This document shows positions 1-53,254 of a stretch of 64,000 nucleotides of DNA, piece by piece. The position numbers and the translations under genes were made by a program. This DNA comes from a virus (Duplodnaviria; Caudoviricetes). Under the pieces are notes generated by a model that was not told the origin of the DNA, made no database searches, and saw only the letters and a list, made by a program, of their open reading frames with translations. Where the stretch lies: IMG/VR virus record IMGVR_UViG_3300035501_000169, positions 1 to 64,000 of that record; one strand, written 5' to 3'. The stretch's first letter is position 1. Every line of letters begins with the position of its first letter.

Positions 1-2119
1 CACCAGGATTAGCCGAACTATTGGACCGACGCGCAACACTACCAGCAGAATAAACGCTGCCATAATCACAGAAACCAGTGTCAGAACTTCCACCAAACTC
101 TTTTGCAAGAATATCAGCATGTGCGCCAAAACACATACGTTTAATATATCCTTCAGAATTAGCAGTATAACTGCCATGTTGAATAATTCTAGACACGTTT
201 CTATTAATATCAAAGACTACAACAAATCTTTGACTTTCGCTCATAGCTTCAAGAAGTTCTGCAGTAAGCTGATAATCTACTCCTTGTTTAGTGATGATAG
301 GATAGCCATAAGATGCTACATAATCACTAAGATAAATAGAAGGATTGGCAGTAGTAACACTAGAAGGTCTTTTAGCTTGCATAACCATAAGATTATCAAT
401 CCATTCAGATAAATCACCTTGAATGTTTTCAATAATCCAAAATTGATTACTTTTAATGTCAGAACCTTCACCAGCTTTAATTTGATCAGAATCAGGAGAT
501 GAAGCTCCAGTACCTTCTTCGTAAGTAGTATCTCTTTCTCCAAGTTCGTCAGTGGCTCCTGTAACTTTAGGATAATAAGTTGAACTAACTACATTAGCAG
601 TACCGTATCCAACTACAGATTGAGAATCTAGACTAGAATAATATCCATAGAAAAGAAGAGCAAGAATAGTGCTAGCCTCATAAGTTACAAGACGGAAACC
701 TGTTCCTCTAGCTCTAGCTCTAGATTTAGCATTAGTTTGAGAAATATTATTAACAGCTGTCTTACCACTAAGACTATAAAGTTTGTTATTTATCATACAA
801 GCTTTATGAACACCGATAAGACTATTCTTTGACCAAACTTGCCAAATATCAGAAGTTTCATTACTTGGAATTTCTCGTGCAATTGTAACAAGAACATAGT
901 TCTCATCAACCTCTGTAAGACCAACTGGAGTCCAAGGTTCAGTCTTATAATAAATATCAGCATCACACTTCATCCAAACATCGTATTCTCCATTTTCATT
1001 ATCAATGTATCCAATAGCACTAGTGCCATCATTAAACATTTTACGAGTAGTAGGACTAAGTTGTTTAAGACGCATACCAGAAAACCCAGTAAAACGACCT
1101 ACATAAGCATGAGTATGTTCTCTAAACCAAGTAAGTGTATTTGTAGAAGAATCTCCAACAGAACCACTATCAGAAATACTTTGAAGTTTATTATTACTAT
1201 CTAGAATACAGTTTTCAGAAACCATTCCAGTAGGGTCACTAACTCCAAGATAACGTTGGTCAATAACAAATCTCACAGGTTTTAAATCATAAATACTAAA
1301 AGAAACAGTGTTATTTAGAGTAACAGTATTATTACAAGCATAAAGTGTAACTACAATTGTACCTGTTCCTTGTGCTTTAGCTTTAATAGTAGTTCCGGAT
1401 GAAGAAGTACTAATAGAAACTAAATCAGGAGTATTAGTAGAATACGTGTATCTAGCTCCTTTAAGCTTAGTAGAATCTGTAGGATATGGTGCTACATTTA
1501 TATCTACTTCTGAATTAATAGGAACTTCAGCTGATGTTGTAATTGTTATATCTTCAATCTTTTTAGCTTTTATTGTGAGAATAACATCAGGTTTGCTAAC
1601 TGTAGGAATATTATCAAAATCAGATTCATCATAATACACAGGATAAGCTGTAAGTTTAAGAGTACAAGTCCAAGAAGCATTTTCTTTTGGGTCATCTATA
1701 ATAAGATAGCCATCTTCTACTCTAATTCTAGATTTGATATTATCTTCAGAAATATCACCATCAATAACAAAATCCGAGAACTCATATTTCCATTTAAGAA
1801 AGTCATGACTAATACCAGAGTCAGTAGCAATATTAATTATATTGCTAGTACCTTCTTTAATTTCACTTTCATTTGTAGTAATTTTAAATGAATCAGCAAG
1901 TTCTTCATCACAAATTATATTCAAATCAGGAAATTGTTTTTCAAGAGCATATTTTAGAAACTTCTGCATCTTTCGACTAGAAGTAGTAACACACCCTTTT
2001 ACAGAAGTATCAAGTCCTTCAGTTTGACCAATAGCTATAAGTTTTTTAATTTGGTCATTTGTAAGAACAATAGGACTACTTTGAGTCCCATTGTTCCAAT
2101 TGAATGTTTTTAAATTCAT
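1..2119 (-). CDS. Tail fibre/receptor-binding protein with Ig-like domain and C-terminal C-type lectin (Mtd/FGE-like) domain, DGR-target type; 3' end outside window
   Basis: Absent from the ORF track because it has no stop in the window. Starts ATG 2119 (MNLKTFNWNNG) right after the stop of the upstream gene. The parts I translated read open to base 1. Contains ENIQGDLSEW and GGSSDTGFCDYGSVYSAGSVARRSNSSANPG, the pattern of CLec-fold DGR targets. Confidence 0.8.
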   Translation of the reverse strand, partial: MNLKTFNWNNGTQSSPIVLTNDQIKKLIAIGQTEGLDTSVKGCVTTSSRKMQKFLKYALEKQFPDLNIICDEELADSFKITTNESEIKEGTSNIINIATDSGISHDFLKWKYEFSDFVIDGDISEDNIKSRIRVEDGYLIIDDPKENASWTCTLKLTAYPVYYDESDFDNIPTVSKPDVILTIKAKKIEDITITTSAEVPINSEVDINVAPYPTDSTKLKGARYTYSTNTPDLVSISTSSSGTTIKAKAQGTGTIVVTLYACNNTVTLNNTVSFSIYDLKPVRFVIDQRYLGVSDPTGMVSENCILDSNNKLQSISDSGSVGDSSTNTLTWFREHTHAYVGRFTGFSGMRLKQLSPTTRKMFNDGTSAIGYIDNENGEYDVWMKCDADIYYKTEPWTPVGLTEVDENYVLVTIAREIPSNETSDIWQVWSKNSLIGVHKACMINNKLYSLSGKTAVNNISQTNAKSRARARGTGFRLVTYEASTILALLFYGYYSSLDSQSVVGYGTANVVSSTYYPKVTGATDELGERDTTYEEGTGASSPDSDQIKAGEGSDIKSNQFWIIENIQGDLSEWIDNLMVMQAKRPSSVTTANPSIYLSDYVASYGYPIITKQGVDYQLTAELLEAMSESQRFVVVFDINRNVSRIIQHGSYTANSEGYIKRMCFGAHADILAKEFGGSSDTGFCDYGSVYSAGSVARRSNSSANPG

Positions 2120-13881: not shown

Positions 13882-15174
13882 TTATAAAATAATATCATCA
13901 ATACTTGATTTACGAGAAGGGTTTTTAATAACCTTAACAGACTTAGTAGAACGTTGTTCTTTTGACTTAACACGCAGTTGACGAACTTTCTCTTCTTTAA
14001 CTGCCATATCAATTAAATTTTTATACGTTCCACCCGTAAACATAAGCCAAGCGTCAAGTATTTCACGAGTGAGATATTCATCATCAGAAAGTTTACTAAG
14101 GTCATACTGATAACCAGTAAGACGTTCACCACTTTCAGTTTCTTTAGGATTAGAAAGATAAGCAAAGAAATCGTTAGGAGTAACTACAACTTTTTTACCA
14201 TCAACTTCTTTAGTAAAGCTTTCAGGTATTTTGTAACCTCCAATTACACGACCTTCTACAACTTTATTAACTCTATCCCAATAATCAGCAACTTCTTTTT
14301 GTTGCTGTTCACGTTTTTCTTGTGCTTTAGTTTCAATATCTTTACGAGTTGCAGCATCTTTTTCAACTAATGCTTGAAGCTGACTTTTAGCCTCATCGTA
14401 AAGACTTCCACTATCACGAAGATATTTAATATAATTGTCGTTAAGACTTTTGTTACCAAATTCTTGTGCAGCCATACGAATAACAGCAACAAGTTGGTTT
14501 TCATTATCTTTATCAAGTTTAATACCACTACGGTCAGGTATTTCACCAAAACCTCTAGGAGTACCATTAAGTTCTACATAATCCTGAAATTGTTTAAGTA
14601 GAGGATTATCAGAATAAAGGCGGTTAACTGCTGCATCTTGAAGTTCTTTAGAACGAAGTTCGATAACAGCATCAACATACGATTTAACACCTGCTACATC
14701 ATTAGTAAACTCGATAGGTTTACCAGCTTCATCAGTTACTGTAACTCCAAGTTCTTTCTGAAGAGAATTAATATCAAGACTAGAATCAGAACCATCAGTT
14801 TCTTCAACTTCTACAGATTTAAGCCATTCAGCTACATCTTTAGCCTCTTTAAATACTTTTCCTTCAGCATCAACAATATCTCCATTTTCAGCAACCGTAT
14901 AAGTATTACCGTCTACTTCAATAGAATCTCCAGCTGCAAGCTCCCCCGTAGGAGGATCTGCGTTGTTATCATTCGCTGTATCAGAATTATCAGCAGGCGG
15001 AGTATTATTAGAATCACCGTCTTTGCTAGTAATATCATCAGCATTACCACCGTTAAGATGAGTCTTATCATCTTGATTGCTTTCACCACCGCCATTATTC
15101 GCAGGGTTCTGTACAGTATCAGAATTATTTCCTTGAATAACTGTACTTCCAAAATCAATATCAGCTGTTGGCAT
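13882..15174 (-). CDS. Acidic protein upstream of MCP (gene 77-like, putative scaffold)
   Basis: 430 aa, disordered acidic N-terminus and coiled-coil C-terminus; synteny. Confidence 0.65.
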   Translation of the reverse strand: MPTADIDFGSTVIQGNNSDTVQNPANNGGGESNQDDKTHLNGGNADDITSKDGDSNNTPPADNSDTANDNNADPPTGELAAGDSIEVDGNTYTVAENGDIVDAEGKVFKEAKDVAEWLKSVEVEETDGSDSSLDINSLQKELGVTVTDEAGKPIEFTNDVAGVKSYVDAVIELRSKELQDAAVNRLYSDNPLLKQFQDYVELNGTPRGFGEIPDRSGIKLDKDNENQLVAVIRMAAQEFGNKSLNDNYIKYLRDSGSLYDEAKSQLQALVEKDAATRKDIETKAQEKREQQQKEVADYWDRVNKVVEGRVIGGYKIPESFTKEVDGKKVVVTPNDFFAYLSNPKETESGERLTGYQYDLSKLSDDEYLTREILDAWLMFTGGTYKNLIDMAVKEEKVRQLRVKSKEQRSTKSVKVIKNPSRKSSIDDIIL

Positions 15175-15222
15175 AATTTTACTATTAGTTTTATTATTAA
15201 TTTATGTATTAACCTAATATCA

Positions 15223-15254
15223 CAAAGATAATTACTTTTATTTCAAATGACAAA
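15223..15254 (-). promoter_or_regulatory. Bacteroidota sigma-type promoter for the capsid operon
   Basis: Minus strand TTTG - 20 nt - TATCTTTG matches the -33/-7 consensus TTTG/TAnnTTTG. Confidence 0.7.
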
Positions 15255-15388
15255 ATAAATTTGAATATTTTTATCAAGATTATTATTAGGTGTGTCATTT
15301 GTTATATTATTACTGCCAAGTGTATATTCTTTATCTCGGACTAAATAGTAATTTGTAGCCGTACTTGTAAGTAAATGTAACATAATGT

Positions 15389-15476
15389 GCCTAATTTATA
15401 GCCTATTTTGCCGTATGTTGGACTTTTATATATGAATTGAAGAACTCTATATTAAGTTGTTAAATTGAGCTGAAAT
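15389..15476 (+). repeat. Degenerate 87-88 bp intergenic element, copy A
   Basis: GCCTAATTT...TGTTGGACTTTT...TTGA...TAAA...CTGAAAT; aligns with copies at 29483, 43556 and 51336. Confidence 0.65.
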
Positions 15477-15504
15477 CTAATAAAAATATTTTAAGTTTAA
15501 TAAT

Positions 15505-15545
15505 CTTGTCCTCACCTTAATCATTATAATCAAAATGAGGACAAG
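15505..15545 (-). terminator. Stem-loop ending the portal transcript unit
   Basis: CTTGTCCTCA...TGAGGACAAG 10-bp stem; weak U-tract. Confidence 0.55.
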
Positions 15546-15566
15546 GAGTAGTTTGGGAATGCACTA
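15544..15566. repeat. 23-bp exact duplicate of recT-like coding sequence 37106-37128
   Basis: AGGAGTAGTTTGGGAATGCACTA is identical at both places. Confidence 0.95.
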
Positions 15567-15872
15567 CTATGTTATTATCATAAATAAGATGAATTTAACA
15601 ATATAAGCAAGATAACCTGCAAGAATTTCTTTAAAATCAAAACCATCATATTCTATTTTATCATTAATCTCTTTTCCAAAGAGAGCAAGAGATGTGACAA
15701 CAAAAGAAACAATAATAGTCCAGATAGTTCCAAGTTGAAGCATTGTAGAAACACTAATAGCAATGTCTGCTATAAGATATGCTGCAACAAAATGTAGAAG
15801 TTTATCTTTATTAACTCTACTAATCCAAAAACATATACTACTTATCATATTTATTCTTATTAGTTTTAGCAA
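15567..15872 (-). CDS. Small membrane protein (probable start ~15848)
   Basis: DKLLHFVAAY...ALFGKEIND...FDFKEILAG with hydrophobic helices. Confidence 0.7.
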   Translation of the reverse strand: MLKLIRINMISSICFWISRVNKDKLLHFVAAYLIADIAISVSTMLQLGTIWTIIVSFVVTSLALFGKEINDKIEYDGFDFKEILAGYLAYIVKFILFMIIT

Positions 15873-18252
15873 TCTTTAAATCATTTTTCATTTCTTCACG
15901 TTTAATTTGTCTATCAGCAGCCTTACTATAAGTATCTGCATATAGTTTTTCACGTTCAAGTTGCAGACGCTGTTGTTCAATAAGATGTTTATTTCTTTCA
16001 GCATCAGCTTGAAGTCTTGTCTTAGCTCCATCATCTTGAGAAGGAGTAGCAAGCAAAGACATATCAACATCAATATATTTAAGTTGAAGTTCATATTGAT
16101 ATTGAAGTTCTTTAGTAAGTCGGTCTTGTTCTCCTTTAGCTTGAATTTCTCTAAGTTTATTTTCAATCTCTTCTTGTTTCAACATTTGTTCTGCTTGTTG
16201 CATTTGTTCTTCATGCTGACGTTTAATATCCATAAACTTTTGAACAGTAGCTTTTATTTGAGAAACATTATCACCAGATATGGCAGCAAGAGCCATATCA
16301 AGGTCACCATTCTGAGCAGCACTAAATGCCCATTGACGAAGTTGTTGAACTTTATCAAGTTCTTTAGCATCATTTCTTACTGTAGTACAATAATCAGAAC
16401 TTACAAAAGAATCAACATCAAGACTTAGATAACGACGTTTACCAAGTTCATCCCAATAAGAAGTATCAAGACCATCAACAAAAGCAAGTTTGCAATAATC
16501 CAAATCTCTATTATAATCAGCCTTACGGAACTCATCAAACATTTGAACAAGAATAACCATACCCATAGAAGAACGACTAATAGCTTCTTGAGTAGTAGCA
16601 GCGCCGGCAGATTGAGCAATATCACCATAACGCTGCATATTCATATCAACCATTTCACGAGCTTCAAGTTTAACAGACTCCATAAGATTAGTAAGTTGAG
16701 TAATGTAATCACCCATGTTAGCATTAAGAAGTCTAATCTGTTGCGCCTTTAAAGAATTAGTATCTTCAGAATCATCAATAAATAAAACTCCGTCAGCAGC
16801 CATTTTATAAATCTTATCTTCTGTATCAGAAGCAACAAGAGATTCAGGTAATAGGAGTATTAGCATTTTATTCTTTGCTATTACCATTTCTCTGTGATAA
16901 GCAAATATGTTTCTCATTACTTGATAAGGAGTAACAAGTTTAATAATACTGAATTTACCCATCATAGGAAGAACTTCCATAATACCATTATAAGGAAGTT
17001 TACCATTACGATTAAAAGCAATAGGTCTAGCTTTAATAGGATAAATAGAAGTATAACGATGACCTATACGATAACCTTCATAAACTTGAGGTTCGTAAGT
17101 CCATTCAATATCTATATCTCCAGCTTCTTTATTTAATTCATAATCTTCTTCAACTACACGAGTAGTAACCATTCCTAGTTCATTAACATAACTAAGAATG
17201 CCACGTTTAGCTTCACCTCTCCAAACAACGTGCCAAACTTCATATAGCTGATTATTATCTTGAGCTATAACAACAGGTTCGCGTTTAAACATATCTCTTT
17301 CTTCTTTTGAAAACTTTTCACAAACATCAGGATAAGTTTCAAAAAGTTGAGTCCAATTGAGTTTAGATATACCCCCATTAGCAGTAGCTCTACCATAATG
17401 ATTCTCAAGAAAATATTTATCTTTTTCAGAAAGGGTATCATCAAACATATCCATAATTTGTTGATAAGACATCAGCATCCTACGGGCGAACATATCATGG
17501 TCTTCAACAAAATAATTAGAATTAGGAATAGGAAAAGCTTCAACTACAGGAACATTTTCTTTAAATAGTTTATCTCCTCTAACATCAGAATAAGAGTAAC
17601 ATTCACCAAGAGAAACAAAGTTAAAGAAAGCAGAAAGATAAATAATATTATCTTGTGTCATAGAACGAACATAGTCAAGAATGTCTTGACCTTGTTTACT
17701 TTCTTCATCAATATATTTCTCATTAAATTCTTGAATAAATTGTTCAGGGTCAGGCATAGCTTGTTGAGGGTCAATAGTACGAGGATCTTGACCTTGTTGT
17801 TGAGCATTTTGAACAAGTTGTTGATATTGTTTTTCAAATTCTTGTTGAAACGCTTGTTGAGCAAGTTCTCCAATCTTTTCTTTAAGTTTAGCATTTTTCT
17901 TAATGATAATATCTGGATTATTTGCACCAACTACAAATTCATGAACACCTTTAAAATATTCAGAAACATACCTACGAATAATATCTGACATAATATCAAG
18001 ATTACGCATAGTAGCAGGAAACCTTTGATATTTCTCATTATTACTATTATAAGGATTTAAAGTTTTCTTATAAAAAGAATTAGGTATGTCACCACGTAGA
18101 ATTGATAGTTTGAGTTCTGTATCAGTTCTATCATTAAAACTAAGACCAGCATCAATTACATAGTCAATGCAATTAGCATACCAATCGGCTTTTTTCTTTT
18201 CAGCACCACTAACTCTTTGTTGAGGAAAAGTGGCATTATAATTAGGCATCAT
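15838..18252 (-). CDS. Portal protein
   Basis: 804 aa following TerL; FPQQRV...KKADW N-terminus and coiled-coil C-terminus typical of crAss portals. Confidence 0.9.
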   Translation of the reverse strand: MMPNYNATFPQQRVSGAEKKKADWYANCIDYVIDAGLSFNDRTDTELKLSILRGDIPNSFYKKTLNPYNSNNEKYQRFPATMRNLDIMSDIIRRYVSEYFKGVHEFVVGANNPDIIIKKNAKLKEKIGELAQQAFQQEFEKQYQQLVQNAQQQGQDPRTIDPQQAMPDPEQFIQEFNEKYIDEESKQGQDILDYVRSMTQDNIIYLSAFFNFVSLGECYSYSDVRGDKLFKENVPVVEAFPIPNSNYFVEDHDMFARRMLMSYQQIMDMFDDTLSEKDKYFLENHYGRATANGGISKLNWTQLFETYPDVCEKFSKEERDMFKREPVVIAQDNNQLYEVWHVVWRGEAKRGILSYVNELGMVTTRVVEEDYELNKEAGDIDIEWTYEPQVYEGYRIGHRYTSIYPIKARPIAFNRNGKLPYNGIMEVLPMMGKFSIIKLVTPYQVMRNIFAYHREMVIAKNKMLILLLPESLVASDTEDKIYKMAADGVLFIDDSEDTNSLKAQQIRLLNANMGDYITQLTNLMESVKLEAREMVDMNMQRYGDIAQSAGAATTQEAISRSSMGMVILVQMFDEFRKADYNRDLDYCKLAFVDGLDTSYWDELGKRRYLSLDVDSFVSSDYCTTVRNDAKELDKVQQLRQWAFSAAQNGDLDMALAAISGDNVSQIKATVQKFMDIKRQHEEQMQQAEQMLKQEEIENKLREIQAKGEQDRLTKELQYQYELQLKYIDVDMSLLATPSQDDGAKTRLQADAERNKHLIEQQRLQLEREKLYADTYSKAADRQIKREEMKNDLKIAKTNKNKYDK

Positions 18253-18286: not shown

Positions 18287-20572
18287 TCAAAACCAATCTC
18301 TTTTCATTATGTGTTGAGAATATCCGTCATCTTCTTTGACTTTTTTACGATGAGCAAGTTCTTTAGCAGCTTCTATATCACAAAGCCTCCATTGAAGTGC
18401 TCGTATAATCATTTCAGAAACACGGTCAAAGTTACCAAGTGCGTTCCATTTTTTAAGTTCAAGAATAGATTGATAATCATATATAGTTTGAAAAAGATAA
18501 ACATCATTTCCTAAATCATCTTTACCTATAACAGAATAAAGCATTTCTTTTAGCAAACGAAGTCCTTCAAGTTTCTTATTTCCATCACCCATATTAACAC
18601 CATAAGTAGATACAATATTACCTTTAATACTAGTATCCCAAATTTCAACAGGGTCTTTCATAAGATATTTAAGAGCTTTCCATTTAGTGAAATTACTTAC
18701 AGTTTCACCTCGGTTAATTTCAACTCCAGTAGTTCCAATACAATTATAGTATTTAGCTAGAAGTAAACAAACTTTATCAGCTTCTTCAAGCTTTTCAGGT
18801 CTACCATAATAAGCACAAACTAAAGCAGTTTTAAAACCATTATACTGACAAGGGTTCATCCAAACTTTAATAGAGTTATGAGAATGCTTATTAGTAATAA
18901 GTTTGTTTTCTTTATTAACACCTACAGGGTCATAACTTATAGAATACAATCCGGGAGGTGTTCCAGTAGTTTGTTTTCCATTTTTATCAGTATAAGGAAT
19001 ATGCATTGGATTAAACCATTTACGAATACATCCATGTGGATGTTCGTGTCCTTTACGAGGAACACCTTCAATCCAATCCCAATAATCAACATTAAGTTTT
19101 CCGCCTTCAGCTTCTATACGAGCATTAGTTTTAAATTCTACTTTGCCATTATTTTCAAACAGCCAACCATCATTATAAAATTTAAAACTATTATCAGTTC
19201 TTAGACGTTCTTCCCAAGCCATAAGTTCTTCACTACTAAATAAATTTTCTGTAGCAGAACTAAAAGACTCAGCAGGCATAATAGCATATTGTCCAAGATA
19301 ATTTATATAATCAGCAAAAGTTTTAGATGTAGCTTTCTTATGTTGTCTTTCTGCAAAAGCAATACGAAGACCAAGTTCCAAATCAGAATTGCCATCTTCA
19401 TCCATAGCATATCTATCTCCAATCTGACCTTGAAGTCCCCAAGCATAACTTTTAAAATATCCACAAATTTCATTACGACAATCTTTATCCCAAACATTTT
19501 CAAAAGGCATAAAACCGAATGATTTTGGAGAATAAAAGTTTTGTTCAAAAACTTGCATATTACCAGAAGTAGCAGTACCCCAACAAAATAGATTACCAGT
19601 AACATAACTACCAGTTCTCATTGCCGGCTCTGTTACAGCCATAAAATCATCAAAGTTTTCCATAGTAGAAAGCTCTTCAACTTTAACATTAACAGCATCT
19701 TTACCAATAGCACAATCAGGATTGTTCATTGCAGATACACTAAACAATGCAGAGTTCCAAGCTTTAGGAGAAACAACACCATTAGGAAGTTTAAAACCTA
19801 AACGGAAGTTTTCTTTATCAGTAGAAAGAATACCTTTTACAAAAGGAGTTTTAGTTTCATAGAAACGAAGGTTGTTAATAGTAAAATCAGTCAAGCCACC
19901 AGTAGAAGTAAGATATTTCTTATCAGCAGCAACATGAATTTGTACTTTACGAGGTTGAAGATTTATAGTATTAGCACTACTAGAAGCCATAATGTAAGAG
20001 AAACCTCCACGACGAGTTTTATCTATAATAAGATGAAAACCATTTCGTATAGCAAATTCCATTACATGAAATGTCCAAAATTGAGCATCAATAAATTTAC
20101 TAAAATCATAATGCTTAGAACCTACACTAGCTTTATTGCTAGACTTAGCTGTCTTAGTATCAAGCTGTTCCATCATAGTATAATTTAGAAAATTATAATG
20201 GTCACCGGTAATTCTAATATCATAAATTTTACCATTACGTAGAAGACAAGGAGCACTAAGTCCATGTCTTCTACGATATTCTTCTCTCTTTCTAAGTTGA
20301 CGATGAGGAATAGAATCTTCTTTATAGAAAGTATATGTTTTATTCTTTCTATAAAAATCAGCCATCTCGGTAAAAAGATGAGTACTTATAAATTTATCAT
20401 CTGGCTGAATATTTAGAAGAAAACCTCCACTATCTCCAACAAGAAATAGATTATCAGGGTCGTCATATCCAGCTTCAGTTGCTGTTTTATAATGACTTTT
20501 ATCTTCTTTAATGTAATTAAGGAAAGGATAATTACGAATAACCTCTTCTACATTCGTTTCAAGTTTTGCCAT
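18287..20572 (-). CDS. terL: Terminase large subunit
   Basis: 761 aa. Walker A-like KTRRGGFS, Walker B VKVEE, nuclease domain ISYDP ... GNFDRV. Confidence 0.92.
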   Translation of the reverse strand: MAKLETNVEEVIRNYPFLNYIKEDKSHYKTATEAGYDDPDNLFLVGDSGGFLLNIQPDDKFISTHLFTEMADFYRKNKTYTFYKEDSIPHRQLRKREEYRRRHGLSAPCLLRNGKIYDIRITGDHYNFLNYTMMEQLDTKTAKSSNKASVGSKHYDFSKFIDAQFWTFHVMEFAIRNGFHLIIDKTRRGGFSYIMASSSANTINLQPRKVQIHVAADKKYLTSTGGLTDFTINNLRFYETKTPFVKGILSTDKENFRLGFKLPNGVVSPKAWNSALFSVSAMNNPDCAIGKDAVNVKVEELSTMENFDDFMAVTEPAMRTGSYVTGNLFCWGTATSGNMQVFEQNFYSPKSFGFMPFENVWDKDCRNEICGYFKSYAWGLQGQIGDRYAMDEDGNSDLELGLRIAFAERQHKKATSKTFADYINYLGQYAIMPAESFSSATENLFSSEELMAWEERLRTDNSFKFYNDGWLFENNGKVEFKTNARIEAEGGKLNVDYWDWIEGVPRKGHEHPHGCIRKWFNPMHIPYTDKNGKQTTGTPPGLYSISYDPVGVNKENKLITNKHSHNSIKVWMNPCQYNGFKTALVCAYYGRPEKLEEADKVCLLLAKYYNCIGTTGVEINRGETVSNFTKWKALKYLMKDPVEIWDTSIKGNIVSTYGVNMGDGNKKLEGLRLLKEMLYSVIGKDDLGNDVYLFQTIYDYQSILELKKWNALGNFDRVSEMIIRALQWRLCDIEAAKELAHRKKVKEDDGYSQHIMKRDWF

Positions 20573-20573
20573 A

Positions 20574-20936
20574 TTATTTCAAAAGTAACAAAATAGTAGC
20601 AATTATACCAACTACTCCTACACCAAAACAAACATTTCTTTGACGAGTTACTTTCTTGCAATCTTTAAGAATTTGTTCATTTATAGCAAGATGATTGTTT
20701 ATAATTATACTATCATTAGAAACTACTTGTCTTAGATTAGCATTAATTTGTTTTTCATAATCTAACTCTATAAGTTTAAAATTAACTACTCTTAAATCAT
20801 CATAAGCAATCATAACACTATCTTTAGGTTCTTCAAGCTCCCCCGTAGAAAGGTTGGAATTATTTGCCAATGAGTTGATAGAACAACTTAAGAGTGCTAT
20901 CATTATCAAGACTTTTAACTTCAATTGTCTTAGCAT
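20574..20936 (-). CDS. Lipoprotein spanin candidate
   Basis: Signal peptide MLRQLKLKVLIMIALLSC with lipobox, coiled coil and C-terminal TM; overlaps the upstream TM gene, next to the endolysin candidate. Confidence 0.55.
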   Translation of the reverse strand: MLRQLKLKVLIMIALLSCSINSLANNSNLSTGELEEPKDSVMIAYDDLRVVNFKLIELDYEKQINANLRQVVSNDSIIINNHLAINEQILKDCKKVTRQRNVCFGVGVVGIIATILLLLK

Positions 20937-27572: not shown

Positions 27573-27706
27573 ACTTCAACATTTGCAATATGATAACATT
27601 TAGTATCAATTTGATATTAAGTGTTATCATATTGTTTCAAAAATAAATTAAATAAAAGATGCTGCTTAAGCATATAATAATTATTAACTTTTAAATTAAT
27701 TCAAAA

Positions 27707-28195: not shown

Positions 28196-28267
28196 ACATA
28201 ATATGGTGATAGTATTGATAATTATATTATTAATACTATCACCTTTACTAATAAAATACATACTATT

Positions 28268-32457: not shown

Positions 32458-33006
32458 ATGAGTGTATGTGACGATTGTCCTATACGTCTATTTAATACTA
32501 AGAACTATAATCTACAAGGGGTTGGCAATCCTTATTATGGTAGGTGTATTGTTGTTCCTAATGTAGATTATAGTGCTTATAAAAAAGGTAGTATGGGATT
32601 TAGTTCTCAAGTTGAGATTATACGCGAATTGCTTTCTTCTACGGGGGAGGGCGATAATGTGTTTATTCTTCCGCTTGTTCGATGTAATGAAAGTATTTCA
32701 TGTGAACTTGATAACACCAGTTATGCTAGATGTTTATCTCATTTTAAAAATGATATTGTAAAATATGATTTTAAAGATATATTACTTCTTGGTGATGCTG
32801 GTAGAAGATTTCTCAATTGCGATATTAGAAATAATCTCAATAACTGCATTATTTCTCCTGTTAGAAGAAGATATGTTGTTAATTATTCTCCATTAATTAA
32901 ATATATTGATGAAGATAAATTTAAAACATTTGAATATTATCTTCTAAAATGGTTTAATGCTACTAGAGAACGAAATTATTCAGGTTATAATATAATAAGA
33001 TTATGA
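32458..33006 (+). CDS. Uracil-DNA glycosylase family 4-like protein (divergent)
   Basis: CDDCP...GVGNP...VRC...C...ILLLG; ATGA-coupled to polB. Confidence 0.6.
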   Translation: MSVCDDCPIRLFNTKNYNLQGVGNPYYGRCIVVPNVDYSAYKKGSMGFSSQVEIIRELLSSTGEGDNVFILPLVRCNESISCELDNTSYARCLSHFKNDIVKYDFKDILLLGDAGRRFLNCDIRNNLNNCIISPVRRRYVVNYSPLIKYIDEDKFKTFEYYLLKWFNATRERNYSGYNIIRL

Positions 33007-36794: not shown

Positions 36795-37724
36795 ATGGAC
36801 AAGCAAACAGAACCAAAAGACGGTGGTAGTAGTCGAACATTGACTACTAGTCATAATGATTCTTCTACTGGTTTACGTGTTCTAAATCTTCTTGATGAAA
36901 AACAACTTGCAAGTGCAGAAGTATTTTTAAAGAAGTTTATGACAAGTGAAAAAGGTGGTATTAAAAGTGTGGCTGATGGCTTAGCTATTCTTACTCGCGC
37001 TCAAGATTTGCAACTTCCTTTTTCTACTTGTATTGAACATATCCATGTTATAAATGGTAAAACTGGTGTTGATATTCATATCGTTAAGTCGTTATTATCA
37101 AGGGCAGGAGTAGTTTGGGAATGCACTAAAGATTATACTCCTCAGTATCAATATACTGATGGTAATACGATTTATCTTGAAACACAACTTCCTGATTATT
37201 GTGTTAAATGTCGTACCGCCAAAGAAGCTACCGAAGCTACAACTGATGATGTTATTGGTGTTTATCCAGTTCGTTGGTATAAAGACCTTAAAGGTAACAT
37301 CTATAACGAACAACAGATTAGCGATAAGTGTGTTAAAGCTATTAACACTCAACAAGCTTTAGCCTTTATTAAAGAAGGTAAATATCCTGTTATTCGTATT
37401 CCTGCTCAACCTGTAGATTATGTTACTGAATATAAGTTTACTCGTTATAAAATGATAAATGGCAAAGAAGTTATTACAACTGCTACTAGTCATTTTTCTT
37501 ATTCAGAAGCGCAATCTGCTGGTTTCTTTGAAAAAGATACTTATAAGAAATATCCTCGTGTTCTTATAGGTCATCGTGCTTTTACTCTCGGTGCTCGTGA
37601 TATAGCCTCTGATGTAATCATGGGTTGTTATGAGATTACTGAACTTAAACTCGTTAACAATATGGATATTGTTGATAGCGATGTAATTCAAGAAACTTCT
37701 TATGAAGAAGTGATTGAACCTTAA
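36795..37724 (+). CDS. recT: RecT/Red-beta-like single-strand annealing protein
   Basis: IHVINGK...FSYSEAQSAG...YKKYPRVLIGHRAFTLGARDIASDVIMG. Confidence 0.75.
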   Translation: MDKQTEPKDGGSSRTLTTSHNDSSTGLRVLNLLDEKQLASAEVFLKKFMTSEKGGIKSVADGLAILTRAQDLQLPFSTCIEHIHVINGKTGVDIHIVKSLLSRAGVVWECTKDYTPQYQYTDGNTIYLETQLPDYCVKCRTAKEATEATTDDVIGVYPVRWYKDLKGNIYNEQQISDKCVKAINTQQALAFIKEGKYPVIRIPAQPVDYVTEYKFTRYKMINGKEVITTATSHFSYSEAQSAGFFEKDTYKKYPRVLIGHRAFTLGARDIASDVIMGCYEITELKLVNNMDIVDSDVIQETSYEEVIEP

Positions 37725-43722: not shown

Positions 43723-45198
43723 ATGGAAAGTGCTGAACTTAGTAAAGAAAAACGTGTTAGACATTGTTATCCGAGAAAGGAAGTTTATCACAGATGGATA
43801 CATTCTCCTATGTATGTTTATCATTCGAGAAATCATGCTATTAGTGGTAAATATAATTTTCTTGTAGTTGGTGATATTGGTCGAAATAATGATTTTGACA
43901 ATATCGCAAGTTCTTGGTATTTGCTATCAAGAACTGTTGCTATCATTGATAGAGAAAGAAAAAGAATTATTATTAATAATTCTTTTAGAGAGCACGCTTG
44001 GTGTGTTAAAAATGCTCTACCTGATGATTATGAAAAGTTTTATACAGATGAAGATATTCCTAGTATGGATATTCTTAATGATGATAATCTTTTGTATAAA
44101 ACTCATGCTACGTATCTTGTAAAGCAATTTACAGATTATTATCTTAAACCACAGTATCATGCTCTTTATGGTCATATTAAAAAAGTATATAGTAGTGTTA
44201 GTAAAATATTTACTACTTATGTTAGACAATATAAAGACATTGAAGATTTTGTAAAGAAGTATAAAATCAAGAAATATGCTTGGTATAAAGAATCTCTTGT
44301 TAAAAACTACGATATTAGATATGTTGCTAGAGATTACAGTATTACTAAGCATAATATTGATTTACCTTCTTTAATGAAGATTATAAATCGTACTGTGTTT
44401 ACTCCTAAAGAACGTGAAATTCTTAAATTTAAGTATTTTTATAGTATGTATTGTTATGGATATGGTATTCCATATAATGATATTATTAAGAATTACTATA
44501 AAGAATTTACTTCTGAAGAAGCTTCTAAGTATTTTAATAAACGTTGTATTTATTTTAATCCTGATTGGATTAAAGAATATCCTATTAGCTTTGTTGAATT
44601 AGTACAAACTGTTCATAAAGCTAATAATAATAGACACTTAGCTTATATAAATGAGTGTAAGGAAAAGTCTAAAAAGAATTACGAAGAAGCTCTTGCTAAA
44701 TTGAAAGAACTTGATAAAGAAGAGTATTCTGTTAACGATTGGCGAGAAGGTAAAATTAAGCGTGCTCGATATGTTGAATATGAAGAATATTTCAATTATG
44801 GAAGAGAAAAAGGTTGGAGAACTGTTAAATTAAGTAGTTCTCGAATTAATGGATTTCAGAATATTCAACTTAAACTTAAGAATGGTATAATTACTACTTC
44901 TAATCATGCTACAGTTTTATTAGATGATGCTATTAAATTATATAGATTCTTTGAAGTTTGTATTAATAAAGAACCTGACAATATTAAGTTTGATTTTAAT
45001 GGTAAAAATATCAAAGTTGGTATTTATACTCTTCGACACTTCATATACAAAGGAAAGACTACCAATGCTGGTGATAATCTTGGATATAAAGAATGGGTTA
45101 TTCAAATAGGTTGTCATAGTATTTGGTTTGATGATTTTCTTGATTTTGTTAAGTATTATAAACTTGAAAATGAGTTTAACATTAAAAACATTGGATAA
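43723..45198 (+). CDS. Hypothetical protein (491 aa, Tyr/Lys-rich)
   Basis: Long ORF with C-terminal ITTS..ATV...GCH; promoter-like TTTG-20-TATATTTA at 43667-43698. Confidence 0.8.
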   Translation: MESAELSKEKRVRHCYPRKEVYHRWIHSPMYVYHSRNHAISGKYNFLVVGDIGRNNDFDNIASSWYLLSRTVAIIDRERKRIIINNSFREHAWCVKNALPDDYEKFYTDEDIPSMDILNDDNLLYKTHATYLVKQFTDYYLKPQYHALYGHIKKVYSSVSKIFTTYVRQYKDIEDFVKKYKIKKYAWYKESLVKNYDIRYVARDYSITKHNIDLPSLMKIINRTVFTPKEREILKFKYFYSMYCYGYGIPYNDIIKNYYKEFTSEEASKYFNKRCIYFNPDWIKEYPISFVELVQTVHKANNNRHLAYINECKEKSKKNYEEALAKLKELDKEEYSVNDWREGKIKRARYVEYEEYFNYGREKGWRTVKLSSSRINGFQNIQLKLKNGIITTSNHATVLLDDAIKLYRFFEVCINKEPDNIKFDFNGKNIKVGIYTLRHFIYKGKTTNAGDNLGYKEWVIQIGCHSIWFDDFLDFVKYYKLENEFNIKNIG

Positions 45199-49039: not shown

Positions 49040-49106
49040 TGAGTTAAACTTAATTATCGCCCTCCCCCGTAGAAAGGTGAAATTTTAGTTATGTCACATT
49101 AAAATT

Positions 49107-53193: not shown

Positions 53194-53254
53194 ATCTTGA
53201 ATATAATTAAGTAGAAAGGTTATCAAGTTGACAACCTTTCTACAGGGGAGCTTG

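Follow-up and report, generated by a model that had tools for sequence, protein, structure and literature searches.

A putative antisense element between the end of the portal operon and its terminator-type hairpin is complementary to, and co-varies with, the recT-like gene of a crAss-like phage

In a crAss-like gut phage, about 20 bases located between the end of the portal (late) operon and its terminator-type hairpin are the exact antisense of the phage's own recombinase gene, and relatives change the two sites together, which points to a previously undescribed RNA switch linking late to middle genes. The window analysed here comprises 64,000 nucleotides (positions 1 to 64,000) of the IMG/VR record IMGVR_UViG_3300035501_000169, whose full genome is 94,454 bp long. 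Hereby, a 23-mer occurs exactly twice in the genome, at 15544-15566 and at 37106-37128, both on the + strand. As minus-strand RNA the first copy, in the following called the guide, would thus be perfectly complementary to the recT-like mRNA, with a computed duplex energy of -40.7 kcal/mol. The same module, consisting of a stop codon, an antisense block, a hairpin and a U-rich tail, follows the portal operon in 25 related genomes, while some lineages, including p-crAssphage-like genomes, lack it.

The two sites and their genomic context

The first-pass annotation had reported this 23-nt match and regarded chance as very unlikely, an observation that is confirmed by our analysis. None of 100 dinucleotide-preserving shuffles gave two matches, even with three mismatches allowed. 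The 23-mer is the longest dispersed exact repeat in the window and, apart from a 179-bp repeat at the two ends of the record, in the whole genome, in which no third copy of its 20-nt core exists at 4 or fewer mismatches. Identity stops abruptly on both sides, with 5/12 and 1/12 identical flanking positions. A self-BLAST of the whole genome revealed no other guide-target pair, since the remaining short repeats are palindromes or belong to a dispersed motif family. The latter is a C-run/G-run motif of about 17-20 nt which occurs at 15 or more places on both strands (window positions 20836, 23928, 32637, 40544, 48968, 49053, 53225, 60313 and 63781; genome positions 69854, 72282, 79882, 80408, 87640 and 88717), with a promoter, a terminator or a protein-binding site as candidate functions. 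The 22-nt exact inverted match 32637-32658 / 49053-49074 belongs to this family and is hence not a second unique guide-target pair. Several long near-perfect palindromes (27-49 nt) lie in the early/middle region at 27586-27634, 28205-28243, 43960-43986 and 53211-53243. The 179-bp GC-rich terminal repeat (window 1-179 and genome 94276-94454) shows only 96% identity, with 7 differences, at 4 of which the second copy has A, and may be an assembly overlap across a hypervariable, possibly DGR-diversified, region rather than a true terminal repeat.

The phage belongs to the Crassvirales, Intestiviridae, near Obtuvirinae. Its nearest GenBank relatives are cr271_1 (Hacihdavirus), ctcc615 (Wotdevirus) and cr8_1 (Fohxhuevirus), at about 73-81% nucleotide identity, all three of which are Crassvirales, Intestiviridae, Obtuvirinae. 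On the minus strand lie terminase (18287-20572), portal (15838-18252; 804 aa), which is the last conserved gene of the terminase-portal late operon, and a small hydrophobic ORF of up to 101 aa (15567-15872), which follows and slightly overlaps portal. The portal assignment rests on PHROG 6547 (portal, E 1.7e-114) and on the annotation of GenBank relatives, whereas for the small ORF only a weak sub-threshold DUF2279 hit was found. The small ORF is absent in most relatives, where the guide follows the portal stop directly. Copy 1 starts directly after the TAG stop of this ORF (15567-15569, minus strand), with the first three bases of the guide forming a second in-frame TAG. It is followed by the hairpin (15505-15545, minus strand) and an A/U-rich tail (15482-15504, minus strand). 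A 390-nt gap separates the small ORF from a 430-aa gene and the major capsid gene. Within this gap, a Bacteroides-type promoter-like element (TTTG, 20 nt, TAnnTTTG) is found at 15223-15254 on the minus strand ahead of the next gene, which starts at 15174. This fits an operon boundary and would imply a new transcription unit after the hairpin. No Bacteroides-type -7 promoter element lies in the approximately 75 nt just upstream of the guide.

Copy 2 (37106-37128) lies in frame in codons 104-110, plus one base on each side, of a 309-aa ORF (36795-37724, plus strand) located in the replication module after the DNA polymerase and an SNF2-type ATPase. Relatives carry the site in frame and annotate the gene as RecT/recombinase, annotations which rest on remote-homology work by others. 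HMMER searches of the protein against Pfam, PHROG and PDB sequences found no match, and neither did Foldseek. For an AlphaFold model (pLDDT 71.7), the top VIA-align hit is lambda Red-beta (7ujl, Z 7.0, 126 aligned residues), with Rad52, Sak, RecT of phage A118 (7ub2, Z 5.7, 136 aligned residues) and Mgm101 also among the top 20, although all Z values are below 8. A single-strand annealing protein is therefore likely but not proven.

Conservation and co-variation of guide, target and hairpin

To evaluate whether relatives lack the element or let its two copies diverge independently, which the first-pass annotation had named as refuting outcomes, we compared the corresponding loci in related genomes. 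The exact 23-mer occurs in three IMG/VR genomes, in recT only. Their portal-downstream region nevertheless carries a near-copy (19-22 of 23) next to a hairpin, inside otherwise poorly alignable DNA. Of 36 loci fetched through the portal C-terminus, 20 showed the antisense block followed by a hairpin and a T-run. The element is also present in ctcc615 and cr271_1, and a covariance model (R1) added one more locus. After collapsing duplicates, there are 18 genomes in which both sites are readable, counting the window, and 7 more loci on contigs too short to hold recT. A contig from a public run, probably of DNA, which yielded only fragments of relatives, carries at a loose end at window position 15848 a further guide variant directly after a portal stop, so that the family is larger than the IMG/VR and GenBank sample used here, although this says nothing about expression.

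For each genome we took the recT site by homology and the block at the operon end. In all 18 genomes, the block matches its own recT better than any of the other six target types. Where recT has a Lys codon instead of Glu, the non-coding block carries the same change (five genomes), and where the Cys codon ends in T, the block does too (five genomes). The block also follows Val/Ile/Thr codon changes, a Glu-codon third-base change, an Asp codon and an Arg codon. In total, positions 8, 9, 14, 16, 17, 19, 21 and 22 show matched changes, among them non-synonymous recT changes. When targets are permuted among the seven types, only the true assignment reaches the observed total (31 of 200,000, about 1/5040), which is the smallest value possible with seven types, and the sequences are related. 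For five distant genomes, the block was located using the genome's own target as the query, which could inflate self-matching, although each hit lies exactly where expected, just before a terminator hairpin after the portal operon. Hence, a passive recombination scar captured from recT, the alternative offered by the first-pass annotation, is rejected by conservation across genera amid intergenic DNA that is barely alignable, and chance is excluded by the shuffles. A binding site for one protein at both positions is likewise most unlikely, as nothing beyond the identity of the two sites speaks for it, while the non-coding copy tracks synonymous and non-synonymous drift of the coding copy in at least seven target types, which would require three-way co-evolution.

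The hairpin, described in the first-pass annotation as having 10 bp, is in fact a 19-bp stem with a 3-nt loop, of which the 10 pairs are the outer, perfect Watson-Crick part. The 9 inner pairs include G.U pairs that exist only in the minus-strand RNA, and the last 2 nt of the 23-mer are already in the stem. On a gap-free alignment of 13 loci with an explicit structure, 9 of 12 pairs show compensatory changes, with a covariation score of 0.564 against 0.264 for shuffles (0 of 500 reach the observed value) and far lower scores for all slid registers, whereas RNAalifold predicted no structure on a first alignment in which two short-hairpin rows were misaligned. Model R1 scores the window's hairpin at 86.6 bits. 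Folding of both strands shows that the hairpin is more stable in the portal sense in 18 of 18 loci, by 6 kcal/mol on average (window: -24.3 against -13.9 kcal/mol), because many pairs are G.U, which become C-A mismatches on the other strand. We thus infer that the hairpin works as RNA on the late strand. Relatives have clear T-runs after the stem, while the tail in the window is only A/U-rich with a weak U-tract and a simple terminator scan did not call it, so that the termination efficiency is uncertain. In the predicted fold the guide is free apart from a weak 5-6-bp mini-stem (15547-15566, minus strand), which leaves the central 10 nt (antisense to the Trp-Glu-Cys codons) in a loop. This fold is predicted in most relatives and could act as a kissing-loop seed, or it may be a by-product of the recT codons.

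The block begins -3 to +50 nt (mostly 0-4 nt; 0 nt in the window) after the stop codon of whichever ORF is last in the operon, which is the portal in ten loci and an inserted ORF of 79-295 codons in eight, counting the window. In three loci the first TAG of the block is that stop codon. The slot between portal stop and guide is a hot spot for inserted small ORFs of differing length, as seen in the window and at the equivalent position in the portal-downstream loci L011, L019, L021, L026, L027, L031, L039 and L040. Guide plus terminator therefore behave as a unit at the operon end, with new genes inserting upstream of it. In the window's clade, the duplex covers target positions 1-23, with mismatches clustering in the five positions next to the hairpin. 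In four distant lineages, the hairpin-proximal part is not complementary, but pairing extends about 9 nt further into the next recT codons, yielding 23-26 bp with one mismatch or bulge. Duplex length, about two helical turns, is thus kept while its position slides. At positions 6-23 over 18 pairs there are 302 identities, 10 differences that remain G.U pairs if the RNAs are the late strand and recT mRNA, 2 of the opposite kind and 10 others, five of which come from one indel. This bias has the expected sign but is not significant given that the + strand has many more G than C (by our own estimate, P about 0.2). Synonymous conservation of the target is elevated but not unique (rank 25 of 303 windows), and its predicted accessibility is unremarkable (47th percentile for the 20-mer, 81st-83rd percentile for the 3' half).

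Whole-genome pattern searches found only the recT copy in six relatives. Of 36 genomes chosen to represent recT-site variants and having a recognisable portal, 31, including the p-crAssphage-like group, show no complementary block within 3.5 kb after the portal, in agreement with the covariance model, whose hits in two genomes (G051 and G056) are plain terminators with poor complementarity to their own recT. One genome lacking the element (G008) has 79% portal identity to the window. The cr8_1-type (Fohxhuevirus-type) genomes, namely cr8_1 (L189, MT774384) and loci L157 and L159, lack the guide and have, just after the portal stop, a terminator hairpin whose 5' and 3' arms resemble the two ends of the guide, possibly a decayed guide or the ancestral hairpin from which the guide arose. 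Two further genomes (G009, locus L020, and G011, locus L024) carry, within the 30 nt after the portal stop, a different conserved block of about 14 nt between this stop and the terminator, for which no complementary or identical second copy was found in those genomes at 3 or fewer mismatches in 17 nt. The element is thus old within this part of Intestiviridae but dispensable.

Proposed mode of action and alternative readings

The first-pass annotation had inferred a 3'-UTR-derived trans-acting sRNA that shuts off recombination once packaging genes are on, an interpretation that is partly supported. Its core, a functional antisense element at the 3' end of the late portal transcript aimed at recT mRNA, holds on every test that could be run. 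Our analysis establishes the complementarity, its conservation, the co-variation of guide and target and of the hairpin, the strand of the structure and its position at the operon end. In contrast, transcription of the stretch and its timing, release of a discrete small RNA rather than action of the mRNA 3'UTR as such, duplex formation in vivo, the nuclease, and the direction and sign of the effect, including the shut-off of recombination, are inferred. A search for RNA data covering 15200-16400 found none for this phage, nor are there any expression data for its guide-bearing relatives, and all guide-bearing genomes are uncultured.

We consider it more likely than not that the element pairs as RNA with recT mRNA in this direction. 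In this view, about 20-25 nt between the last stop codon and the terminator-type hairpin would base-pair with the coding region of the recT-like mRNA, a middle gene 21.5 kb away on the other strand. In crAss001, replication and recombination genes are middle genes (10-30 min) and structural genes late (30-60 min), with modules following gene orientation (PMC8375218). By analogy, the portal transcript would appear after recT mRNA and should outnumber it. The late RNA, either as mRNA 3'UTR or as a processed fragment of roughly 70-90 nt (guide plus hairpin), would then form a duplex of about two helical turns with recT mRNA. Since the target lies deep in the CDS rather than at the ribosome-binding site, repression would need a nuclease, and a 20-25-bp perfect duplex inside a CDS is the kind of substrate that RNase III cuts. 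The RNase III family is found in Bacteroides thetaiotaomicron, while a search of the phage genome for its own RNase III or TROVE gene gave no match. The most likely consequence would thus be cleavage by host RNase III and down-regulation of recT, and possibly of neighbouring cistrons, late in infection. It should be considered, however, that the guide starts at the stop codon, so that terminating ribosomes would cover part of it in the intact mRNA.

Alternatively, the same pairing could act in the opposite direction, with recT mRNA changing the 3'-end stability of the late transcript, translation termination or ribosome recycling at the abutting stop codon, or read-through into the capsid genes directly downstream. 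The guide does abut or overlap the stop codon and its last 1-3 nt enter the terminator stem, yet complementarity fades towards the hairpin rather than invading it, a separate promoter-like element precedes the capsid genes, and late structural mRNAs should, by inference, greatly outnumber a middle mRNA, which makes recT mRNA a poor regulator. We therefore regard this reading as unlikely. Even less likely appears a function at the DNA level, in which the two direct repeats are kept identical by gene conversion or for recombination, for example annealing by the predicted SSAP itself, the intergenic copy being a repeatedly refreshed copy of recT DNA. Identical copies in direct orientation, the presumed annealing protein encoded by the gene involved, the differing extent of identity between lineages and the non-significant wobble bias would fit such a scenario. 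However, conversion of single bases inside 20 nt of homology has no known mechanism, recombination between direct repeats 21.5 kb apart would delete essential genes, the block is always fused to a strand-asymmetric RNA hairpin at an operon end, flanks never share homology, and tolerated differences are mainly of the G.U-compatible kind. Hybridisation of the late RNA to recT DNA as an R-loop, blocking middle transcription or seeding a late replication or recombination event, fits the complementarity equally well and nothing in the sequence excludes it. Nevertheless, it remains very doubtful, since the guide is followed by a hairpin and offers no free 3' end for priming, no associated helicase or nuclease signature was found, and our literature searches found no precedent in this phage group.

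crAss-like phages are among the most abundant viruses of the mammalian gut, yet almost nothing is known about how they control gene expression after transcription. The comparative support obtained here is of a strength that is rare for a predicted bacterial or phage antisense RNA, and it provides a concrete, testable wire from the late to the middle module, namely turning down the annealing recombinase once packaging genes are on. Hfq is not known from the host phylum, and the long, near-perfect pairing may therefore show how trans-antisense control works there. Only tentatively, the guide-plus-terminator cassette can be viewed as a chaperone-independent silencing switch, whose two-turn duplex is measured and cut by host RNase III to shut off the recombinase mRNA, and which is evolvable in that it slides along and tracks its target, survives gene insertions upstream and is lost in some lineages. 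If so, it would be the first regulatory RNA family described for Crassvirales and a template for programmable knock-down in Bacteroides. If this is wrong, an unexplained case of two short sites 21 kb apart evolving in concert remains.

Relation to known regulatory RNAs

Rfam returned only three chance-level hits (11.6-19.5 bits against thresholds of 40-100), and literature searches on antisense RNAs, sRNAs and transcriptomes of crAss-like phages found no description of the element or of a regulatory RNA in this group. A CRISPR-derived element, i.e. a solitary repeat-spacer unit or RNA anti-CRISPR, was rejected, because only the pairing of the hairpin and not its sequence is conserved and the guide matches the phage's own gene.

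In layout, the element resembles 3'UTR-derived trans-acting sRNAs of bacteria such as CpxQ, SroC, DapZ and SdhX, and CisR, a host 3'UTR sRNA reported to act on a CTX-phi mRNA (PMC13250501). Hereby, the presumed regulatory sequence sits between a stop codon and the terminator-type hairpin of the parental mRNA, in 17 relatives always followed by a hairpin and a U-rich tail, and the conserved stretch, predicted to be largely unpaired, has a target encoded elsewhere in the genome. It differs in that complementarity is long and near-perfect (18-25 nt) rather than a 7-12-nt Hfq-type seed, and in that it is phage-encoded and aimed inside the CDS of the phage's own gene. Classical phage antisense RNAs, namely lambda OOP against cII, P22 sar and P1/P7 c4, likewise silence a gene of the same phage through extended duplexes, with OOP-type control working through RNase III cleavage of a duplex in or near the CDS. 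OOP and sar are, however, cis-antisense RNAs transcribed from the strand opposite their target locus, whereas guide and target are here 21,562 bp apart and belong to different temporal modules, and c4 acts within its own operon and in lysogenic immunity, not in late-to-middle control in a virulent phage. In Firmicutes, the Listeria hly 3'UTR pairs with prsA2 mRNA and the S. aureus icaR 3'UTR with its own 5'UTR, without Hfq and in one case involving RNase III. Those are host genes with shorter or imperfect pairing and differing outcomes (stabilisation in Listeria), and neither links temporal classes of a phage. Finally, a lambda sRNA found by RNA-interaction mapping is reported to act in trans on the host replication machinery during lytic growth (bioRxiv 10.1101/2024.10.31.621285). 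While that RNA targets host mRNA through Hfq-type pairing, the element described here would target the phage's own recombinase mRNA with near-perfect complementarity.
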